Of a stretch of DNA of 12,554 nt, positions 603 through 12,554 are shown piece by piece. A model generated the notes under the pieces. The model searched no databases and was not told the origin of the DNA. It saw only the letters and a list, made by a program, of their open reading frames with translations. The translations under genes were made by a program, and so were the position numbers. The first letter of the stretch is position 1, and every line of letters starts with the position of its first letter. The stretch comes from a virus. The stretch lies in the UHGV virus genome UHGV-0141061; one strand, given 5' to 3'.

Positions 603-1667
603 TTAGTAAGAGATAGGTATTTCTCCTGTAGAGAAGTTGCCTGCTGCACCTTCCCTGCTGCATAAAGCGAACTTCTTATCAACCACATCCCTTGAGTCTG
701 TAGCAATAATTTCATGGCAAATATTATTTGCAGATCTGTGCACGAATGTATTTACAACAGGCTTACTGGACGATGTTCCTTTGGCCCTCGTTCCGTCTAT
801 AAGGCAATCAGACACCGACATAAGTCCTGAAACTAGGTTATTGCTTGAATCCCAATCTATCAACGACTTATCAAAATACACGCTTCCTAACATATAGGTT
901 GTCCCTCCGGAGTAACCAACAAACCTGCGCAGCACTCCACCTTCCAGCCTAATATAGCTGCGAGACATTCCAGACGTAAAGTTCATGAAAGTTATGTCCA
1001 TATTGCTCTCAAGACCATAAAGGCATGATGCATACTCATTCAGGTATCCAATATAAGCTAAAACCTTACAACCAATTGATTTCGCAGGTGTCAGTTTGAC
1101 TATTGATATTTCTCTGGAAGTTGAATCATGGTAAGAGATGGCCCACTCAAATCTTGCATTTTTACCATTAAAGGTGCTTCCGGAGAAATCTATAACGCCA
1201 GGCATAATGAAATCACGAATAATGCTATTTTGTGTCTTAAAATTATTTTTAAATGAAACAATGTTAAGTGTGACTGCGTCAGGCCAGTAGATATTTGTAG
1301 ATATAATTACATTTTTTGGCAGATTTAATGCTCTTGGCTGAACAGGGCTACCAGTGGAAACAACATTATCACACCTGCATGTGAAGAGATCTACAAGCCC
1401 AGTTTTGTCCGATGATATTCTTACCGAACCCCCTTTGACAATAAAATCCCCCTTATGCTCTCCATAGTCAGTGCGAATCCCAAAGGGACCAATATCTGAG
1501 TTTATAATCTGCGTTGATTCATCAAAAGCGCCAGTACCAAAAGCCGCGCCATTAATTATCCTGCAATTGTCTATCAAAACCTTAGACGATCCATAATGAA
1601 GATTGAAGCTATCAACAGTGCAATCTCTTACCACAGTGTCACGGCTATAATTACCATCAATAGAACG
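603..1667 (-). CDS. Tailspike, distal (receptor-binding, beta-helix-like) portion; same frame as 1668-2849 but separated from it by TGA at 1668-1670
   Basis: Track ORF 603-1634 starts at GTG; the frame is open upstream to the TGA (linking codons RSIDGNYSRDTV); Gly/Ser/Asn/Thr-rich beta-strand-like sequence; AT-rich. Confidence 0.55.
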   Translation of the reverse strand, partial: RSIDGNYSRDTVVRDCTVDSFNLHYGSSKVLIDNCRIINGAAFGTGAFDESTQIINSDIGPFGIRTDYGEHKGDFIVKGGSVRISSDKTGLVDLFTCRCDNVVSTGSPVQPRALNLPKNVIISTNIYWPDAVTLNIVSFKNNFKTQNSIIRDFIMPGVIDFSGSTFNGKNARFEWAISYHDSTSREISIVKLTPAKSIGCKVLAYIGYLNEYASCLYGLESNMDITFMNFTSGMSRSYIRLEGGVLRRFVGYSGGTTYMLGSVYFDKSLIDWDSSNNLVSGLMSVSDCLIDGTRAKGTSSSKPVVNTFVHRSANNICHEIIATDSRDVVDKKFALCSREGAAGNFSTGEIPISY

Positions 1668-2849
1668 TCACCCTTTCCCAACAACAGTGCTAAAAAAAGA
1701 ATGCTTCAGAGTAAACTCTAGAGTCAATGTGTAGCGAGATTCAGAATCAGGTTGTGTCATCCCCGATGAGCACAAATACCAATTAACACCGTATGTATTA
1801 CTACTACCAAAAATTGCAGAGTTGATGGGTATTACGCCTAAGGTATTATCATAATTAACCCTTACATCAACCATAGACCTTTTGATATCAACAGCCGTGC
1901 CAGTAAACGTCCCTGATAACTTAGGCAATACAATGACAGTCCTTCGCACAGGCAGCTTATATAAAGTACAGATAAGTGAAGAGTTGTATGTATTCTTAAA
2001 TGTATACGCTAAATCACTTCCTTTGGTTAGTAGGTTAACTTCACCTTTGTATTTTGGCGTGAAAGTGCTGCCAAGCAATCGGTACAAGTCAATTTCAGTA
2101 CCAGACATCTTAACTAAGGAATTATCCCATCCAGTGGTTGACTCTGTAAATGTTAGCGCGGAAGTTAGCTCGTTTAATGGATATGCTGATGGTGTAAAAT
2201 CTTTAATGTATGTAGATGCGTCTCTCTCATCAGCATAAACAATCTTACCGCCAGCCAGGTTGAACGTGCAATTGCTGAGATCAAAATCTCCGTATAACGT
2301 TGTCTCTTTGTCGATAGTGAAAGTCAGTGGCATAGTTGAGTAGATTTTCACTGGAGTTCCTTTAAACTCAGCAAAAACAGAATTCAACTGATCGCTATTT
2401 CTTTCACCATCAGCAGCAGCTATATCGTATACAGAAAGCCTGACCTCTAACCCCCCTATTATTTTGTAACCGTCTGGCGAACTAATTTCATCCATGAACC
2501 TTTGCTCAAACTGGTCAGGGTCATACTTCAGCACATTCGGAAAATAGAACTGCTGAGAACCGTACGCATCGTATACAGCCATAGAATGGCCTTGCACAGT
2601 TACGAATTTGGCAATCTGTCCGTTATATACAGGATACCCGCCAGCGTTAATGATGATTGGCTGTGCAACAGGAACGTGAGAACCGTCTTCGTTTTCCACA
2701 TAAACCTGAATCTGGTTTTCAGGATTTACCGGGTCAGTGCCAATTTTACCGATATAAATTTTGCCATTGGCTACGGCTTTAAAAGAACGAGCCATAGTGA
2801 AGAGTTGCGAAGGCATGCTTACCACAACATTTGCGGTGATATCTGACAT
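1668..2849 (-). CDS. P22-type tailspike, N-terminal part including the head-binding domain; ends at an in-frame TGA
   Basis: From ATG 2847-2849 (GGAG 7 nt upstream): [78 protein letters not shown], which closely parallels the P22 gp9 head-binding domain as I recall it. The track's start at 2897 is an upstream in-frame extension. Confidence 0.8.
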
Positions 2850-2937
2850 TTCATTGCTCCAGACGAATGATATGATGCAACCATGATGTGATTGCATACC
2901 GAAATGGTACTATTGAGTATTTATCCAGTAGGTTACG

Positions 2938-3231
2938 ATGCCATTCCACCCAACTGGTGAGGCATCAAGGATGTACAGCAAATACGACGAGGCGCAGTTT
3001 CACTTGAGACTTCCGCATGAACTTCACGCGAAAATTAAACAGCGTGCGAAGATGAATAACAGGTCGCTGAACTCAGAGATAATTGCAGCGATTGAAGAAT
3101 CATTGACTAAACAAAGCTCTGCATCAGTTTACATTGACGATGCAGAGCGTATGGCAGAACAACAATCCGATATGGTAAAGAAAATTGTCTTTGATACGCT
3201 CAAAGAGCTATATAAAAAAGACAGCAGCTAA
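2938..3231 (+). CDS. mnt: Mnt-like ribbon-helix-helix repressor
   Basis: FHLRLPHELHAKIKQRAKMNNRSLNSEIIAAIEESL...DAERMAEQQSDMVKKIVFDTLKELYKK parallels P22 Mnt (FNFRMPMEVREKLKFRAEANGRSMNSELLQIVQDAL...DAERLADEQSELVKKMVFDTLKDLYKK, recalled). An alternative start is ATG 2971. Confidence 0.8.
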   Translation: MPFHPTGEASRMYSKYDEAQFHLRLPHELHAKIKQRAKMNNRSLNSEIIAAIEESLTKQSSASVYIDDAERMAEQQSDMVKKIVFDTLKELYKKDSS

Positions 3232-3238
3232 CTATCAG

Positions 3239-3742
3239 TTACGGAGGATTCCCGATAGGGGGTAAGGGGGTATTTGTATTTATTGTCTTTTGTATATTGT
3301 CTTTTGTGTTTGACTGATTCGGTAAATTGCTTTTTACCGATTTGGTGAAGGTTTGTTTTACCGAATTGGTAAATGTTTTACCGAATCCGTTAACTTTCGT
3401 TTTCCACTCGGAAATGTTTGTATTCATACCAACTTGACGCCCCACCTGAATGAGAACTCCCATTCTGATAAGCTCGTTTTTGGCGGTAGAGCATTTGGTT
3501 GGTGCCATGCCAGTGAGTTCAGCGAACTGTTCGTTTCCGATCCAATCTATTTTTTTGTTGTAACCGTATGTCTTGCGCCACACAGCCATAACAATCAGTA
3601 ACTGATGTAGAGTAAGTCCAGAAAGCATGGCGGCTTCTAACAGTGTGTTTGCAGTCCGAGTGTAGCCATCTTCGAGTTCTGCCACGCGATGCTCCACGAC
3701 CTCCAGTTGAGGCCTGTAATCAGCTAACTTAACGACGCCCAT
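3239..3742 (-). CDS. Replication initiator O-like protein, N-terminal (iteron-binding) domain only; C-terminal domain absent
   Basis: DGYTRTANTLLEA..LTLHQLLIVMAVWRKTYGYNKKIDWIGNEQFAELTGMAPTKCSTAKNELIRMGVLIQ..NISEW parallels the lambda O N-terminal domain (recalled). AGGAG lies upstream of ATG 3740-3742. The ORF ends at TAA 3239-3241 just after the iteron and A+T-rich segment, where lambda O continues for about 130 more codons. Confidence 0.7.
   Translation of the reverse strand: MGVVKLADYRPQLEVVEHRVAELEDGYTRTANTLLEAAMLSGLTLHQLLIVMAVWRKTYGYNKKIDWIGNEQFAELTGMAPTKCSTAKNELIRMGVLIQVGRQVGMNTNISEWKTKVNGFGKTFTNSVKQTFTKSVKSNLPNQSNTKDNIQKTINTNTPLPPIGNPP
3318..3393. repeat. ori-like iteron array inside the O-like gene
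   Basis: Three direct 18-bp repeats TTTTACCGA(T/A)TTGGT(G/A)AA at 3332-3349 and 3356-3373 and TTTTACCGAATCCGTTAA at 3376-3393, plus an inverted partial copy ATTCGGTAAA at 3318-3327; an A+T-rich segment follows at about 3270-3317, arranged as in lambda ori. Confidence 0.5.
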
Positions 3743-5402: not shown

Positions 5403-5744
5403 ATGACACAATTTCAACTTGCATTAATCGCTAGAGAAGTTGATGGAGAAGTCATCCATCTTCGCACCAAAGACGGATACATCAATGCCACCGCGATGTG
5501 CAAGTCTGCGGGGAAGCTACTTGCTGACTATACACGACTAAAAACAACACAAGATTTTTTTGATGAATTATCACGCGATATGGGGATTCCCATATCGGAG
5601 TTAATTCAATCATTTAAAGGCGGAAGAGCAGAGAATCAAGGGACTTGGGTTCATCCAGACATCGCAATTAATTTAGCTCAGTGGCTATCTCCAAAATTTG
5701 CAGTGCAAGTATCGAGATGGGTGCGTGAGTGGATGTCAGGTTAA
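5403..5744 (+). CDS. KilA-N domain protein (113 aa) immediately downstream of cI, in the position of lambda rexA
   Basis: AGGA 6 nt upstream of ATG 5403; GYINATAMCKSAGK...GTWVHPDIAINLAQWLSPKFAVQVSRWV is the characteristic KilA-N pattern; same strand as cI. Confidence 0.7.
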   Translation: MTQFQLALIAREVDGEVIHLRTKDGYINATAMCKSAGKLLADYTRLKTTQDFFDELSRDMGIPISELIQSFKGGRAENQGTWVHPDIAINLAQWLSPKFAVQVSRWVREWMSG

Positions 5745-5783
5745 AGAGCGCCTGCCGAACTCCCTATCCACCTTAAGCGGTAT

Positions 5784-6162
5784 ATGACAAACCGAGGCAG
5801 AGTTCCTCATACGCACTTTTCTATGCTTAATGAACTGACGTTTAACTTGGTTGCGCCACTTGAACAGGCCGGATATACGCTGCCAGAAAAAATGGTCCCT
5901 GATATTTCAGAGGGTAGGGTTTTCTCGCAATGGCTCCGTGACAACCGGGGGGTTGAGCCGAAGACATTCCCAACATATAACCATGAGTACCCAGATGGCC
6001 GGACATTCCCGGTACGTCTATACCCAAACGAATATTGCAGATTTCAAACAATACTTCAACGAAGTGTGGCTGCCTCAGTACGCTCCTAAATATTTTGCTG
6101 AACGAGACCAAAGGGCATTGACGTTGATTGAGAAAATCATGCTACCTGACCTTGATTCCTAA
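5784..6162 (+). pseudogene. Hypothetical protein with a broken reading frame (+1 shift between two overlapping ORFs 5784-6089 and 5851-6162)
   Basis: Frame 1 ...FPTYNHEYPDGRTFPVRLYPNEY and frame 2 ...NIADFKQYFNEVWLPQYAPKYFAERDQRALTLIEKIMLPDLDS both look protein-like and switch near 6020-6040; frame 1 is also in frame with the upstream KilA-N ORF across TAA 5742-5744; weak ribosome-binding site. Confidence 0.4.
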
Positions 6163-6557: not shown

Positions 6558-6758
6558 ATGATTACGCTAAGCGAAATGCTTCGCTCATATAAACCAGATG
6601 AACACACTAAGGACGCTATCGACTGGCTGGAAGATGATGACTGTAACTATCAGGAAAAAGCCGCTGAATGGTTCTGGGATGCAATAACCGAAAGAGTTAA
6701 GGCTGAATATGCCTTCGCAATATTCAAACGCAGACACATTTTTGGAGAAGCTGCATGA
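6558..6758 (+). CDS. Small acidic hypothetical protein (66 aa), first gene of the PL operon
   Basis: GGAGG 9 nt upstream of ATG 6558; stop overlaps the next start (ATGA at 6755-6758), implying translational coupling; no homolog recognised. Confidence 0.5.
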   Translation: MITLSEMLRSYKPDEHTKDAIDWLEDDDCNYQEKAAEWFWDAITERVKAEYAFAIFKRRHIFGEAA

Positions 6759-7090
6759 GCAATATCGTTGAATTCGTTAAACAGCAGGAGCAGTTATTCT
6801 GCGGAGCATTGACTGAACAGACGGTGACATGGGCTAAGGAAAGCCAGTTTGCAATTCAGTATTTCCAGAAAAACGATTACCTGGCTAAAACAGCACTGGC
6901 AAATCCAACCAGCGCACAGAACGCCATCATCAATGTTGCGGCGATCGGCATCACCTTAAACCCGGCCAGCAAACTGGCTTATCTGGTTCCTCGCGACGGC
7001 ATGGTGTGCCTTGATATCAGTTACATGGGATTACTTCATCTTGCGCAATCGACAGGATCAATTAAGTGGGGGCAATGCAAACTGGTGTAA
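6755..7090 (+). CDS. RecT/Red-beta-family recombinase, N-terminal fragment (truncated)
   Basis: ..NAIINVAAIGITLNPASKLAYLVPRDGMVCLDISYMGLLHLAQSTGSI.. follows the conserved RecT core pattern (E. coli RecT ..IVQCSQLGLEPGSALGHAYLLPFG..IIGYRGMIDLARRSGQI.., recalled) but stops at 111 aa where full-length proteins have about 270. Confidence 0.5.
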   Translation: MSNIVEFVKQQEQLFCGALTEQTVTWAKESQFAIQYFQKNDYLAKTALANPTSAQNAIINVAAIGITLNPASKLAYLVPRDGMVCLDISYMGLLHLAQSTGSIKWGQCKLV

Positions 7091-8274: not shown

Positions 8275-8466
8275 ATGACCGATACCAGCCTGATTCCTGA
8301 GAAAGAAGTGATGAACAAGCTCGGTGTTTCATCACGTCAGACAATCTGGAACTATACCAAACGGCACGGATTTCCGAAGCCAGTCAGAACCCACCCCAAA
8401 TCATACCTTCGTGAAGCTGTTGAAGGGTGGATTCTTAACGGTGGCGTTAATCAGAAATGCTCCTGA
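8275..8466 (+). CDS. AlpA/Xis-family DNA-binding protein (excisionase or regulator)
   Basis: GGAGA upstream of ATG 8275; ..MNKLGVSSRQTIWNYTKRHGFPKPVRT..YLREAVEGWI is the AlpA-type winged-helix pattern; lies beside the integrase; its 3' end overlaps the integrase 3' end by 20 bp. Confidence 0.8.
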   Translation: MTDTSLIPEKEVMNKLGVSSRQTIWNYTKRHGFPKPVRTHPKSYLREAVEGWILNGGVNQKCS

Positions 8467-8920
8467 TGTGCCAGAACAATTTATCAGCGTGAAGCTCATA
8501 CGCTTTGCGCTGAGCCTCTATCCAATCGAGTTTATTGTATACGGACATTATCCCGCCAAGTTCATGACCGAGCATTCGCTCAGTAACATGAGGCTCGACA
8601 TTCATCTCGGACAGCCGTGTAACAAGCGTTCTTCTGAAATCATGTGTTCGCCAGTAACCTAGGTCCATCCCTCCCCTTATTCTATTTACGAATCGGTTGG
8701 CTGCAGCGATGCTGATCGGTTTGTTTATGTCTTCTCCAGGGAAAAGAACATCATTGTACGTTGTCATGGCCTTTTCGAGGAAAGGCTTAATTTGTTCGAA
8801 GATTGGACGGCGGATAACATTACCCATCTTGCTATGCTCTTTCGGTACGGTCCATACGTTGTCCAGCAGGTCAAATTCTGTCTTTATTGCCAGCCTAAGT
8901 TCTGAGAGCCTCGCCCCCAC
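8447..8920 (-). pseudogene. Tyrosine integrase (P4 type), C-terminal catalytic fragment
   Basis: ..GARLSELRLAIKTEFDLLDNVWTVP..HDFRRT..LGHELGGIMSVYNKLDW.. shows the catalytic R/H-x-x-R/Y region; its frame differs from the central fragment at a C5 run (8914-8918). Confidence 0.8.
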
Positions 8921-9136
8921 AGCATAAGCATCTGATGAAGTAGCTTATTTGACGTAGACGCACGGCTTCTTTCAATAGCAAGCCAAATCTTAGCCAGTTC
9001 GTGATACGACAGTACCCGATCCCCTACCTCAGCGCGGGAGCCGAAGTCCCTTGGTTGGATGCTCATAATTGCGCAACTATCTATCAACTGACGCCGCATG
9101 CACCAACTAATTGCTGATCTTAGTTGACTTAGCACC
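8884..9136 (-). pseudogene. Tyrosine integrase, central fragment between the IS insertion and the frameshift
   Basis: In frame with the N-terminal fragment once the IS and one target duplication are removed (1341 bp, a multiple of 3); ends at a stop 8884-8886 created by the frameshift. Confidence 0.6.
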
Positions 9137-9200
9137 TGATGTAGCCCCCTGAAACACCAGACAGTAGCTGTATCTCCAGATAAGAGATAGGCTTGAATAT

Positions 9201-9596
9201 ATGTCTAACACTAACACCAATATTGAGATGACCGGGATCCTGTTAGGGCAAGAAGTCCGTAAACGTAAAACTCCTCAGGAGAAGATCGCCATTATCCAGC
9301 AGACGATGGAGCCGGGTATGAATGTCTCCCATGTCGCCCGCCTGCATGGTATCCAGCCCAGCCTGCTGTTTAAGTGGAAGAAGCAATATCAGGAAGGCAG
9401 CCTCACCGCCGTTGCGGCTGGAGAGGAAGTCGTTCCTGCTTCTGAGCTTACTGCTGCTCTGAAGCAGGTCCGGGAGCTTCAGCGCCTTCTGGGCAAGAAG
9501 ACGATAGAAGTTGAGATCCTAAAAGAAGCCGTGGAGTACGGTCAGTCGCGAAAATGGATAGCGCACGCGCCCTTGTTGCCAAAGGACGGGGAATAG
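9201..9596 (+). CDS. IS3-family transposase OrfA (helix-turn-helix and leucine zipper)
   Basis: ..[78 protein letters not shown].. resembles IS2 OrfA. Confidence 0.85.
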
Positions 9597-10435
9597 CCAT
9601 GGTCAGCCGGACCATGGGCGTGTCGCGTGCGCAACTGTCACTGCGGATTAACCGTTCTGCCGACTGGCAGGACAGGCGCTGTAACCGGCGTAATGAAGAA
9701 GCAGACGCAGAAATACTGTCGGCTATCCTCAACATTATCAGCGATATGCCGAGTTATGGTTATCGACGCGTGTGGGGCATCCTGCGCAAGCAACGTCGCA
9801 CAGAGGGACAGCCACCTGTGAATGCCAAACGGCTTTACAGGATAATGAGCGAGCATAACCTGTTGTTGTTGCATCACAAACCAGAGCGACCGAAGCGTGA
9901 ACATAAGGGCAAGATAGCGGTGGCAGAAAGCGATATGCGCTGGTGTTCAGATGGCTTCGAGTTCGGCTGCGACAACGGCGAAAAACTGCGGGTAACGTTC
10001 GCGCTGGACTGCTGCGACCGTGAGGCCATAGACTGGGCAGCAAGCACGGGAGGCTATGACAGTTCGACCGTGCAGGATGTGATGCTGAGGTCGGTGGAAA
10101 AGCGCTTCGGCGACAGGCTGCCGGAAACACCAGTGCAGTGGCTGACGGACAACGGTTCAGCATATACCGCGCATGAAACGCGGAGGTTCGCCAAAGAGCT
10201 GAATCTGGAGCCATGTACAACAGCGGTGAGCAGCCCGCAGAGCAATGGCATGGCCGAACGGTTCGTGAAGACGATGAAGGAAGACTATATCGCGTTCATG
10301 CCGAAACCGGATGTGAGAACAGCCCTGCGGAACCTTGCAGCGGCGTTCACGCATTACAATGAAAATCACCCGCATAGTGCGCTGGGATATCACTCTCCGA
10401 GAGAATACCGGCGGCAGCGGGCATCGTTAACTTAA
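9554..10435 (+). CDS. IS3-family transposase OrfB (DDE catalytic domain), in the -1 frame relative to OrfA
   Basis: ..[92 protein letters not shown].. is a DDE integrase-core pattern resembling IS2 OrfB; overlaps orfA by 43 nt. Confidence 0.85.
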
Positions 10436-10472
10436 GATACAAAAGCTGTCCGGAAATGGCGGGTCAAGATCA

Positions 10473-10965
10473 GCACCTGCCTTGCTCGGCGTGGATTATC
10501 TTTTTCTTCTTCGGTAAGCAGGTCAACCCATTGCTTAACCGTGATAGAAGATGCCGGACGATTAGGGAAGGCGTCATGCATGCGCTTCATAACCGTTGAT
10601 CGGTAAAGTGCCTGGGTCTTTTCTCTGAGAGTTGTAGAGACGTAGTTGTCGAACCAGTAGTCGAGACACTGGGCGACCGTCATGGAGTTCTCCACCTTCT
10701 CTTCAAAATAGGTGCGTGGATCCGTTCCTGAGAAATAGAGCTTCCGCAAGTCAGCAGTGATCTGTCTGGCATCCTTCAAAGACAGGGATGGGTATCGACC
10801 AAGCCCAAGTCGTTTAGGCTTGCCATACCAGCGATAGCGGTACTGGAACTGGATGACCCCCTTCGGTGAAATTCGTACGCTGAGGCCATCGGCATCAGCC
10901 ACTTCTTGTGGGCCCGAATATGGTTTACCATAAATAGTACGCAGTTTTGTGTCGCTTATAGCCAT
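10473..10965 (-). pseudogene. Tyrosine integrase (P4 type), N-terminal fragment upstream of the IS insertion
   Basis: MAISDTKLRTIYGKPYSGPQEVADADGLSVRISPKGVIQFQYRYRWYGKPKRLGLGRYPSLSLKDAR is the characteristic N-terminal arm-binding domain of P4-type integrases; the track ORF continues 13 codons into the IS before stopping. Confidence 0.8.
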
Positions 10966-11146: not shown

Positions 11147-12507
11147 ATGACAGACACAGATAAACAACCTACCTTCCTCTTTCACGATTACGAAACCTTT
11201 GGCACGCACCCCGCGTTAGATCGCCCTGCACAGTTCGCAGCCATTCGCACCGATAGCGAATTCAATGTCATCGGCGAACCCGAAGTCTTTTACTGCAAGC
11301 CCGCTGATGACTATTTACCCCAGCCAGGAGCCGTATTAATTACCGGTATTACCCCGCAGGAAGCACGGGCGAAAGGAGAAAACGAAGCCGCGTTTGCCGC
11401 CCGTATTCACTCGCTTTTTACCGTACCGAAGACCTGTATTCTGGGCTACAACAATGTGCGTTTCGACGACGAAGTCACACGCAACGTTTTTTATCGTAAT
11501 TTCTACGATCCTTACGCCTGGAGCTGGCAGCATGATAACTCGCGCTGGGATTTGCTGGATGTTATGCGTGCCTGTTATGCCCTGCGCCCGGAAGGAATAA
11601 ACTGGCCTGAAAATGATGACGGTCTACCGAGCTTTCGCCTTGAGCATTTAACCAAAGCGAATGGAATTGAACATAGCAACGCCCACGATGCGATGGCTGA
11701 TGTGTACGCCACTATTGCGATGGCGAAACTGGTAAAAACGCGTCAGCCACGTCTGTTTGATTATCTCTTTACCCATCGTAATAAACACAAACTGATGGCG
11801 TTGATTGATGTTCCGCAGATGAAACCCCTGGTTCACGTTTCCGGAATGTTTGGGGCATGGCGCGGCAATACCAGCTGGGTGGCACCGCTGGCGTGGCATC
11901 CAGAAAATCGCAATGCCGTAATTATGGTGGATTTGGCAGGAGACATTTCGCCATTACTGGAACTGGATAGCGACACATTGCGCGAGCGTTTATATACTGC
12001 AAAAGCCGATCTTGGCGATAACGCCGCCGTTCCGGTTAAGCTGGTGCATATCAATAAATGTCCGGTGCTGGCCCAGGCGAATACGCTACGCCCGGAAGAT
12101 GCCGACCGACTGGGAATTAATCGTCAGCATTGCCTCGATAACCTGAAAATTCTGCGTGAAAATCCGCAAGTGCGTGAAAAAGTGGTGGCGATATTCGCGG
12201 AAGCCGAACCGTTTACGCCTACAGATAACGTGGATGCACAGCTTTATAACGGCTTTTTCAGTGACGCAGATCGTGCAGCAATGAAAATTGTGCTGGAAAC
12301 CGAGCCACGTAATTTACCGGCACTGGATATCACTTTTGTTGATAAACGGATTGAAAAGCTGTTGTTCAATTATCGGGCACGCAACTTCCCGGGGACGCTG
12401 GATTATGCCGAGCAGCAACGCTGGCTGGAGCACCGCCGCCAGGTATTCACGCCAGAGTTTTTGCAGGGTTATGCTGATGAATTGCAGATGCTGGTACAAC
12501 AATATGC
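11147..12507 (+). CDS. sbcB: Exodeoxyribonuclease I (SbcB), 3' end truncated by the contig/adapter boundary
   Basis: By-eye translation with no stops: MTDTDKQPTFLFHDYETFGTHPALDRPAQFAAIRTDSEFNVIGEPEVFYCKPADDYLPQPGAVLITGITPQEA...EFLQGYADELQMLVQQYA matches E. coli SbcB except in the first 12 or so residues. Absent from the ORF track, presumably because it has no stop before the window end. Confidence 0.9.
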
Positions 12508-12554
12508 CTGTCTCTTATACACATCTGACGCTGCCGACGATCTACTCTGTGTAG
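12508..12554 (-). other. Illumina Nextera adapter, reverse complement of 2-48; technical
   Basis: ctgtctcttatacacatct gacgctgccgacga tctactct gtgtag read directly. Confidence 0.9.

Follow-up and report, generated by a model that had tools for sequence, protein, structure and literature searches.

The closest described systems are the immI regions of phage P22 and its relatives. In P22, Omnt overlaps the beginning of the divergent ant promoter while abutting that of mnt; operators of the Mnt family are roughly 17 bp long, two-fold symmetric and located next to the repressor's own promoter. The corresponding stretch of the related phages, the "ant moron", is highly variable, and is mnt-only in ST64T, ST104 and Para1 (Villafane et al. 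2008, PMC2629481). Likewise, the phage L genome paper reports a lone mnt homolog (bioRxiv 10.1101/2020.10.05.325894). The lone-mnt arrangement is already known from related phages, and for phage L the question has been raised why selection would retain a repressor with no visible target beyond its own promoter region.

The present analysis concerns a 12,554-nucleotide stretch of viral DNA (UHGV virus genome UHGV-0141061), referred to at its full length as the window, which carries an mnt-like gene next to a tailspike gene. The two-domain protein is common to the window and P22, with an identity of approximately 49% in the alignment and an almost identical C-terminal third. The gene occupies the same genome position and orientation as immI of P22, upstream of and divergent from the tailspike-side genes, and in both cases a palindrome abuts the -35 of the mnt promoter. 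The window differs in that arc, ant, sar, Oarc and Pant are missing, in the palindrome (ATACCnAAAnGGTAC as compared with GGTCCAC-C-GTGGACC in P22), and in the recognition strand of the protein (QFHLR versus HFNFR). As arc, ant, Oarc and Pant are absent, the repressor of the window has no antirepressor to control.

The lone-mnt phages ST64T, ST104 and L are similar to the window class in that mnt is the only remaining immI gene between gene 16 and the tailspike, and they share the same promoter and leader architecture, including a GATGCC...GGCATC repeat, with an intact and widespread gene. They belong to a separate class (QFNLR; identity approximately 58% with 720R6 and 49% with ST64T), whose operator reads AGACCAC-N-GTGGTCT and whose gene-9 leader is of the P22 type, whereas the window belongs to the QFHLR class and has a different tailspike leader with a putative stem-loop of its own. 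Phages Sf101 and IME10 share the acyltransferase neighbour and the sbcB integration site with the window; they are complete phages in which mnt is followed by a gene-16 homolog, while the window joins mnt to a truncated O.

The reading we favour, at a probability of about 70%, is that the locus is an autoregulated remnant cassette in an Sf101-like prophage. In this prophage the variable ant moron, which adjoins the tailspike on its upstream side, contains nothing but mnt. According to the model, the Mnt protein would bind one palindrome (2896-2910) abutting the -35 of its own promoter, with a geometry as in P22 Omnt/Pmnt. With Pant, arc and ant gone from the window, what remains would be a self-contained, probably autoregulated repressor-operator cassette with no visible target beyond its own promoter region. 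The new elements are the likely start codon, the proposed operator and promoter for the QFHLR class, and the interpretation of an inverted repeat noticed in the first-pass annotation as a possible leader stem-loop. The significance beyond annotation is small; an operator and a promoter are proposed for a common class of Mnt-like genes.

The mnt-like gene and the prophage remnant that carries it

The window corresponds to contig NODE_127_length_12554 of a metagenome assembly (ENA ERZ652521). Its outermost 48 bases at each end are Nextera adapter and not genome, and the genomic matches all begin at base 49. The gene order, as determined from ORFs and Pfam matches, is acyltransferase, tailspike, mnt-like gene and truncated O (O'), followed by the immunity region (Table 1). 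Beyond O' come the minus-strand genes cII and cro, followed by a plus-strand gene for a lambda-cI-like repressor; a broken bstA, a truncated recT, early genes, a split integrase gene and sbcB are found further along. No gene is located between the mnt-like ORF and the tailspike, and the two diverge, in agreement with what the first-pass annotation had described.

Table 1. Features of the window, with positions counted from its first base
Feature	Position	Strand	Basis or remarks
Acyltransferase gene (O-antigen), cut by contig end	34-567	+	ORF and Pfam
Tailspike gene (P22 gene 9 homolog)	603-2849	-	Head_binding domain, E 1.8e-66; start at 2849
Inverted repeat of the first-pass annotation	2875-2897	-	Probable 9-bp stem, 5-nt loop; 25-47 nt upstream of tailspike ATG
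Proposed Mnt operator ATACCgAAAtGGTAC, centred on 2903	2896-2910		Positional homolog of P22 Omnt
Proposed mnt promoter	2913-2939	+	-35 TTGAGT 2913-2918, 15-nt spacer, -10 TACGAT 2934-2939
Second inverted repeat GATGCC-N18-GGCATC	2937-2966	+	From -10 edge to ribosome-binding site of mnt
In-frame upstream ORF extension	2938-2970	+	Overlaps invariant TACGAT -10; probably mnt promoter and 5' leader
mnt-like gene, 86 aa	2971-3231	+	Pfam, PDB chains, P22 Mnt/Arc alignment
Truncated replication gene O (O')	3251-3742	-	Phage_rep_O domain; BLAST break 3250/3251

The window holds a defective Sf101-like (P22-type, Lederbergvirus) prophage inserted at sbcB, which is also the integration site of Shigella phage Sf101 (PMC4159516). 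Replication, lysis and virion (morphogenesis) genes are missing from the prophage. An old deletion begins midway through replication gene O and reaches the end of the gene-16 homolog; nothing in between is left, and the immunity region is joined directly to the mnt, tailspike and O-antigen acyltransferase genes. All BLAST matches break where O' is fused to DNA just downstream of mnt. The 167-aa protein encoded across this junction is indexed in 58 blocks of the assembly collection, which include several human-gut metagenomes and one NCBI genome. As the junction recurs across the collection, the remnant is real and widespread rather than an assembly artefact. In contigs long enough to include the flanks, the remnant is located between sbcB and a PBP5/6-type carboxypeptidase gene, and one contig pairs it with a different immunity region. 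The tailspike gene is split by a nonsense change at 1668-1670, which is explained by a single-base difference at window position 1668; the change is carried by the window and an identical sister contig, while sister contigs mostly have an intact tailspike of 748 aa. The integrase gene is interrupted by an IS element, for which the Pfam matches show an IS3-family transposase only and which we take to be IS2. The replication genes of Sf101 are annotated differently from those of the window.

The ORF at 2938-3231 on the plus strand matched both Pfam families of the Mnt repressors: Arc (PF03869) with an E-value of 8.6e-15 and 54.8 bits (cut-off 20.4), and Repressor_Mnt (PF11423) with an E-value of 3.4e-14 and 52.7 bits (cut-off 20.9). 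It likewise matched the solved Mnt chain 1MNT (E 3.2e-19, residues 6-79) and the chain of the tetramerisation peptide 1QEY (E 1.5e-8, residues 56-84). The ORF is a genuine homolog of Mnt as judged from these matches, with an Arc-like ribbon-helix-helix domain and an Mnt tetramerisation tail, and the earlier assignment was right in this respect. The recognition strand reads Q9-F-H-L-R13 where the alignment places HFNFR of P22 Mnt. The product is predicted to be a tetrameric ribbon-helix-helix repressor of another specificity class (QFHLR) than the P22 protein.

Translation probably starts at ATG 2971, giving 86 aa, and not at ATG 2938, so that the intergenic region is 2850-2970. With the start at 2971, the N-terminus aligns with those of Mnt and Arc, and the 86-aa form is the one chosen by most gene callers in sister contigs. 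Furthermore, ATG 2938 overlaps the invariant -10-like TACGAT, and in the QFNLR class the corresponding ATG is not in frame with the gene, as read from the sequences. The extension preceding ATG 2971 is consequently best regarded as probably untranslated, and as part of the promoter and 5' leader.

Prevalence of lone mnt loci and selection on the gene

A set of 232 Mnt loci was collected and sorted by the recognition strand of the ribbon-helix-helix domain. Arc and ant accompany mnt in 79 of the 82 loci of the HFNFR class, exemplified by P22. Neither gene was found in any of the 84 QFHLR loci, to which the window belongs, or in any of the 66 QFNLR loci (examples ST64T, L and 720R6). A lone mnt is the normal state in two of the three main Mnt classes. 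The mnt gene, the spacer and the start of the tailspike gene are found at 97% DNA identity in phages Sf101 (NC_027398) and IME10, and the module is carried by 270 of 5,426 complete E. coli genomes (approximately 5%).

The cassette is directly upstream of the tailspike in 150/150 lone-mnt loci; the tailspike start is no more than 200 bp from mnt in 125 of them and 201-800 bp away in 23 more. Within the QFHLR class, the distance is within 200 bp in 69 of 84 loci. In VSe13, JEP4, 720R6 and ST64T mnt is directly beside the tailspike, with neither arc nor ant between them. About a dozen QFHLR loci have extra DNA between mnt and the tailspike that resembles, in our assumption, an HNH homing endonuclease gene; in JEP4 and one other QFHLR locus the extra DNA is AT-rich and holds no long ORF. 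In the complete relatives Sf101, 720R6 and ST64T, no other immI gene than mnt lies between the gene-16 homolog and the tailspike gene, and mnt is transcribed away from the latter. The window has the same mnt-only ant moron, with the gene-16 side deleted.

The absence of the remaining immI functions was apparent by several approaches. The first-pass annotation had noted no arc or ant nearby, and neither gene is present in the window: tblastn with P22 Arc and Ant gave no match, and no antirepressor domain was detected by Pfam in the window ORFs scanned. In addition, no ant is annotated in the whole Sf101 genome. With regard to a P22-type immI region, the window thus contains no ant under Mnt control, and no arc, Oarc or Pant with an overlapping Omnt.

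The mnt gene is under purifying selection. Among 82 QFHLR-class copies, representing 55 alleles, 33 synonymous and 32 non-synonymous distinct variants were observed, corresponding to a pN/pS of 0.23. Constraint is stronger in the DNA-binding half, with 18 synonymous versus 10 non-synonymous variants, than in the C-terminal half. All copies but one (81/82) are intact, and the remaining copy carries a stop.

Candidate operator and promoter of mnt, and the repeat upstream of the tailspike

The 15-bp palindrome ATACCnAAAnGGTAC is the likely operator of the window Mnt, as judged from sequence comparison. It abuts ATTGAG (-35), as Omnt does in P22. Alignment of the upstream regions showed that every class has a palindrome and, immediately after it, (T)ATTG as the -35 of the promoter of mnt. 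Across the four Mnt classes the sequence of this palindrome covaries with the recognition strand: GGTCCAC-C/G-GTGGACC (Omnt) with HFNFR, AGACCAC-N-GTGGTCT with QFNLR, ATATCAC-C-GTGATAT with QFNFR (a Phlomobacter contig), and ATACC-n-AAA-n-GGTAC with QFHLR. The arms of the QFNLR palindrome are fixed, while its central base takes all four values. According to a passage in PMC3413123 that cites Knight and Sauer 1989 and Raumann et al. 1995, the specificity of Arc and Mnt is set by N-terminal residues, and the co-variation of operator and strand fits this rule. The four recognition-strand/operator pairings could serve the study or engineering of DNA recognition by ribbon-helix-helix proteins.

Further details of the candidate operator were obtained from 29 distinct QFHLR-class sequences, drawn from E. 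coli, Salmonella, Serratia and Citrobacter contexts. TACC, AAA and GGTA are almost invariant in this set, and the symmetric inner positions vary in 5 and 6 sequences. The only copy with a degraded arm (AGTA) belongs to a pseudogenised mnt with a stop (Citrobacter, L352). In the window the left half-site is imperfect, reading ATACCGA as compared with the ideal GTACCAT. The 4-bp palindrome with its 5-nt spacer is present in 43% of shuffles and is not above chance in the single sequence; the operator call is consequently built wholly on comparison. Indeed, the single-sequence statistics are at chance level for all three inverted repeats of the region.

The proposed mnt promoter was assigned in the same manner. 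Its -35 TTG and -10 TACGAT are invariant across the 29 QFHLR-class sequences. As counted on the sequences, P22 Pmnt, the QFNLR class and the 135-bp type of QFHLR spacer agree in how far the palindrome centre, the -35 and the -10 lie apart, and this spacing is 2 nt shorter in the 121-bp type found in the window. The short spacer of 15 nt explains why the putative promoter was not called by the consensus scanner. The second inverted repeat, GATGCC-N18-GGCATC, is a conserved element of both lone-mnt classes, QFHLR and QFNLR, but is not conserved in P22; its Serratia counterpart is shifted (ACGATGC...GCATCGT).

In approximately 1 Mb of DNA flanking the loci, each locus contains the operator core once; the complete Sf101 genome likewise contains a single copy, with no second one found. 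The genome-collection operator scan returned 6 loci, which covered Escherichia sp., Serratia, Citrobacter and Phlomobacter. Scanning of the viral collection with CATACCNAAANGGTAC returned at least 122 matches. Of those listed, 37 had an Mnt-like frame just downstream, a further match came from this module truncated at the end of a contig, and the remainder were scattered in unrelated environmental contigs; among the matches listed, all in module-related DNA adjoin mnt itself. One phage family carrying the motif twice, 515 bp apart, before small genes was judged unrelated; the large gene downstream of these small genes presumably encodes a terminase. A second TACC-N5-GGTA in the window (3359-3371) was treated as a coincidence. 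It is absent from Sf101, and we take it to be one of the replication-origin repeats inside O'.

A different element of the spacer had been put forward as the possible operator in the first-pass annotation, namely an ATGCAA/TTGCAT repeat given with an N10 spacing and ending at 2896. The repeat is real, but the spacing is N11 and the element ends at 2897. Its arms moreover extend to 9 nt, ATGCAACCA and TGATTGCAT; they contain one mismatch and enclose a loop of 5 nt. When the 121-bp spacer is dinucleotide-shuffled, 43% of the shuffles contain a perfect inverted repeat of 6 bp spaced by 3-20 nt, and 13% contain one of 9 bp with a single mismatch. The repeat is confined to the 121-bp spacer type and is absent from the 132- and 135-bp types, and relatives that combine this recognition strand with a gene-9 leader of the P22 type do not have it.

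The pattern of variation within the repeat suggests a stem-loop in the tailspike mRNA leader, which is more likely than a protein-binding site. The mismatch is a C.A on the plus strand and corresponds to a G.U pair on the tailspike-sense (minus) strand. Some natural variants change this pair to A-U or G-C, other variants add a further three G.U pairs that exist on the tailspike-sense strand alone, and one Escherichia relative shows a G-C to U-A double change in the stem. Pairing was retained in 185 of 189 cells on the minus strand versus 164 of 189 on the plus strand, a comparison that draws on few variant events in closely related sequences. The folding z-score of the repeat was -1.3, and RNA folding z-scores were weak overall (-0.3 to -1.3); the P22-type leader also folds to a stem at a similar place.

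That the repeat is itself an Mnt operator, or a second one, appears highly improbable in view of these data. In its favour, it is a near-palindrome of 23 bp located between the divergent genes and perfect in two natural variants, and the double change in one relative is compensatory. Still, it is lacking from the 132- and 135-bp types, VSe13, JEP4 and the Serratia locus, where the recognition strand, like the DNA-binding domain, is that of the window. The non-Watson-Crick states are all G.U on the tailspike-sense strand only, which is the pattern of an RNA stem and not of a symmetric protein site, and in a protein site the compensatory G-C to T-A change would alter which bases are contacted in each half. 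The repeat is in addition not above chance in the single sequence, and the position equivalent to Omnt is occupied by the other palindrome.

Possible roles of the lone repressor and its labels in public records

Two roles had been proposed for an Mnt lacking arc and ant. One is an action in trans, in which it would shut down the ant promoter of a P22-type phage that superinfects and so shield the resident cI repressor. There is precedent in P22 lysogens, where the prophage Mnt represses ant of incoming P22 (PMC11016777). The gene is also under purifying selection and apparently has its own promoter, and selection for a function beyond regulating that promoter would explain its retention. This role is nevertheless very unlikely. 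The QFHLR strand differs from that of P22 by His6 -> Gln and Asn8 -> His, two positions that Sauer's work reportedly tied to Mnt specificity. The cognate palindrome differs from Omnt in both half-sites, and neither Omnt nor Oarc of P22 was found in the window with up to 3 mismatches allowed; this includes the 2850-2940 region singled out earlier for comparison with Omnt. None of the 84 QFHLR loci has ant. Likewise, a QFHLR Mnt or the TACC operator is used in none of the 79 sampled arc-and-ant loci, in none of the 82 HFNFR loci as a whole, and in neither CUS-3 nor 611R6, which carry ant. The operator copies in module-related DNA, all next to mnt among the viral-scan matches listed, also count against it. 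Finally, a passage of the phage L genome paper describes this mnt-only phage as having no functional secondary immunity (bioRxiv 10.1101/2020.10.05.325894, citing Susskind and Botstein 1978). The other proposed role is control of the tailspike, either via repression of a leftover ant-type promoter or by impeding late-operon transcription, which has to pass the operator and to oppose that of mnt. The candidate operator is located 47-61 nt upstream of the tailspike ATG, the cassette adjoins the tailspike in every lone-mnt locus, and Villafane et al. suggest that late read-through into gene 9 is modulated by the ant moron and possibly by Mnt and Arc (PMC2629481). This too is improbable. The consensus promoter scan of 2600-3500 gave 2 sites versus 2.2 expected, with no promoter-like site directed leftward towards the tailspike. 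The equivalents of the -35 (TTGACA) and -10 (TATATT) of P22 Pant are lost in the QFHLR and QFNLR loci, as read from the sequences. Moreover, the blocking of antiterminated late transcription by a bound repressor is not established for Mnt, and the P22-like phages Sf6 and HK620 make tailspike normally without any mnt (PMC2629481).

The gene could also be a functionless relic of a decaying immI region, an option raised for phage L. The state of the prophage is in line with such decay, with O cut short, the morphogenesis genes lost, int interrupted by what we take to be IS2, and both the tailspike and bstA genes broken. This explanation has a very low probability given the pN/pS of 0.23, the stronger constraint on the DNA-binding half and the single stop among the 82 copies. 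The operator arms and the -10 are near-invariant across E. coli, Salmonella and Serratia contexts, and the module persists in inducible phages such as Sf101. The autoregulated cassette accordingly remains the preferred reading, although purifying selection is not explained by a target at the gene's own promoter, so that a further target may have been missed. It is conceivable, if still unlikely, that both lone-Mnt classes (QFHLR and QFNLR) are kept for a job other than ant control. Mnt would then set the late transcription reaching the tailspike, through the bound operator and convergent mnt transcription, or a matching site in other resident or incoming phages would be repressed. QFHLR would in that case represent a new specificity type of small stand-alone phage regulator.

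The gene is not mentioned in the Sf101 paper (PMC4159516), and PADLOC contains no defence-system model matching Mnt. Public records of Sf101 and IME10 label it "partition protein ATPase" or "chromosome segregation ATPase". This labelling is an annotation error, carried by PHROG 795; the present assignment corrects this spread mislabel and fixes the likely start codon.

Deletion and the remnant prophage

The junction at 3250/3251 fuses the truncated replication gene O, O', to the DNA immediately downstream of the Mnt-like repressor gene, mnt, and the deletion has removed the remaining replication region together with the nin, Q, lysis, head and tail genes. Public assemblies contain the fused O' protein of 167 aa in 58 indexed blocks. 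The remnant carrying it is flanked by sbcB and a PBP5/6-type carboxypeptidase gene; one contig combines the fused O' with a different cI region. In combination, these observations reveal that the deletion-bearing prophage is old, widespread and defective.

The mnt gene and its leader

In an alignment (A1) of the window with VSe13, JEP4 and P22, the N-terminal DNA-binding domain of mnt in the window and in the complete relative Sf101 is common with VSe13 and JEP4, and the C-terminal tetramerisation helix is common with P22. mnt is itself a mosaic gene, and this distribution implies that recombination occurred within it, between the DNA-binding and tetramerisation domains. Several public phage records (Sf101 NC_027398 gp14, epsilon34 gp16 and UAB_Phi20 mnt), and PHROG 795 too, give Mnt homologs the name "partition protein ATPase" or "chromosome segregation ATPase". 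These labels are an annotation error; the protein is a ribbon-helix-helix repressor of 83-86 aa.

The mnt leader contains a second inverted repeat, GATGCC-N18-GGCATC, that starts at the mnt promoter's -10 element and extends as far as the ribosome-binding site (coordinates in the table). It is kept in both lone-mnt classes, QFHLR, that of the window, and QFNLR (there with an N19 spacer), and is displaced to ACGATGC...GCATCGT in Serratia. P22-type loci having Arc lack the GATGCC...GGCATC repeat. The repeat could form a hairpin in the leader, or it could serve as a second site for protein binding.

In about a dozen related prophages, an insert of 650-730 bp lies between mnt and the tailspike gene (collected loci L013, L037, L050, L052, L057, L060, L064, L081, L082, L083 and L086). 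It contains a gene resembling those for HNH (plus AP2-like) homing endonucleases, in the same orientation as mnt. The insertion point lies exactly at the tailspike start; the few opening codons of the tailspike gene are duplicated, and next to mnt the old leader remains intact.

Operator-like sites away from mnt

The sequence TACCGAATTGGTA agrees with the core of the proposed Mnt operator, TACCGAAATGGTA, at 12 of 13 positions, and is located inside the O' repeats, which we take to be replication-origin repeats. By shuffling, it is unusual for the window to have two TACC-N5-GGTA sites (1/200 shuffles). Still, as Sf101 has the mnt site and no second copy like that in O', the resemblance was treated as coincidence.

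A promoter-like element, TATGGCTGTATATACATACCGAAACGGTACACAACA, which includes the same TACCGAAACGGTA palindrome, occurs twice, 515 bp apart, in the unrelated viral contigs L240, L247, L283, L299 and L336. No connection of this element to Mnt was established in these contigs, where each copy directly precedes a small gene, with a large, terminase-like gene downstream.

Other broken genes and the window ends

A single-base nonsense change divides the tailspike gene into ORFs of 393 aa and 343 aa; sister contigs bearing the same deletion have an intact 748-aa tailspike and an adjoining intact acyltransferase gene. cI is followed downstream by a broken bstA, an abortive-infection defence gene. The integrase gene is broken up by an IS3-family element resembling IS2.

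Coordinates of sites, broken genes and end features in the window
Feature	Position	Remark
Nextera adapter	1-48; 12507-12554	inverted orientation
End ORFs (examples)	32-193; 34-567; 12288-12554	34-567, first codons; 12288-12554, end
Tailspike nonsense change	1668-1670 (-)	
Leader inverted repeat	2937-2966	
O' repeats	3333-3400	
Operator-like site in O'	3359-3371	
Broken bstA	5403-6162	
KilA-N ORF of bstA	5403-5744	
Two further bstA fragments	5784-6089; 5851-6162	match middle and C-terminal parts of BstA models (PADLOC, PHROGs)
recT, truncated	6755-7090	
Integrase region	about 8447-10965	
Integrase gene pieces	10432-10965 (-); 8884-9135 (-); 8447-8920 (-)	
IS3-family ORFs	9201-9596; 9554-10435	

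Both window ends consist of Illumina Nextera adapter (TCGTCGGCAGCGTCAGATGTGTATAAGAGACAG and part of the i5 index), and ORFs called there are partly artefacts. The first genomic base is 49 in all genomic matches of the window.
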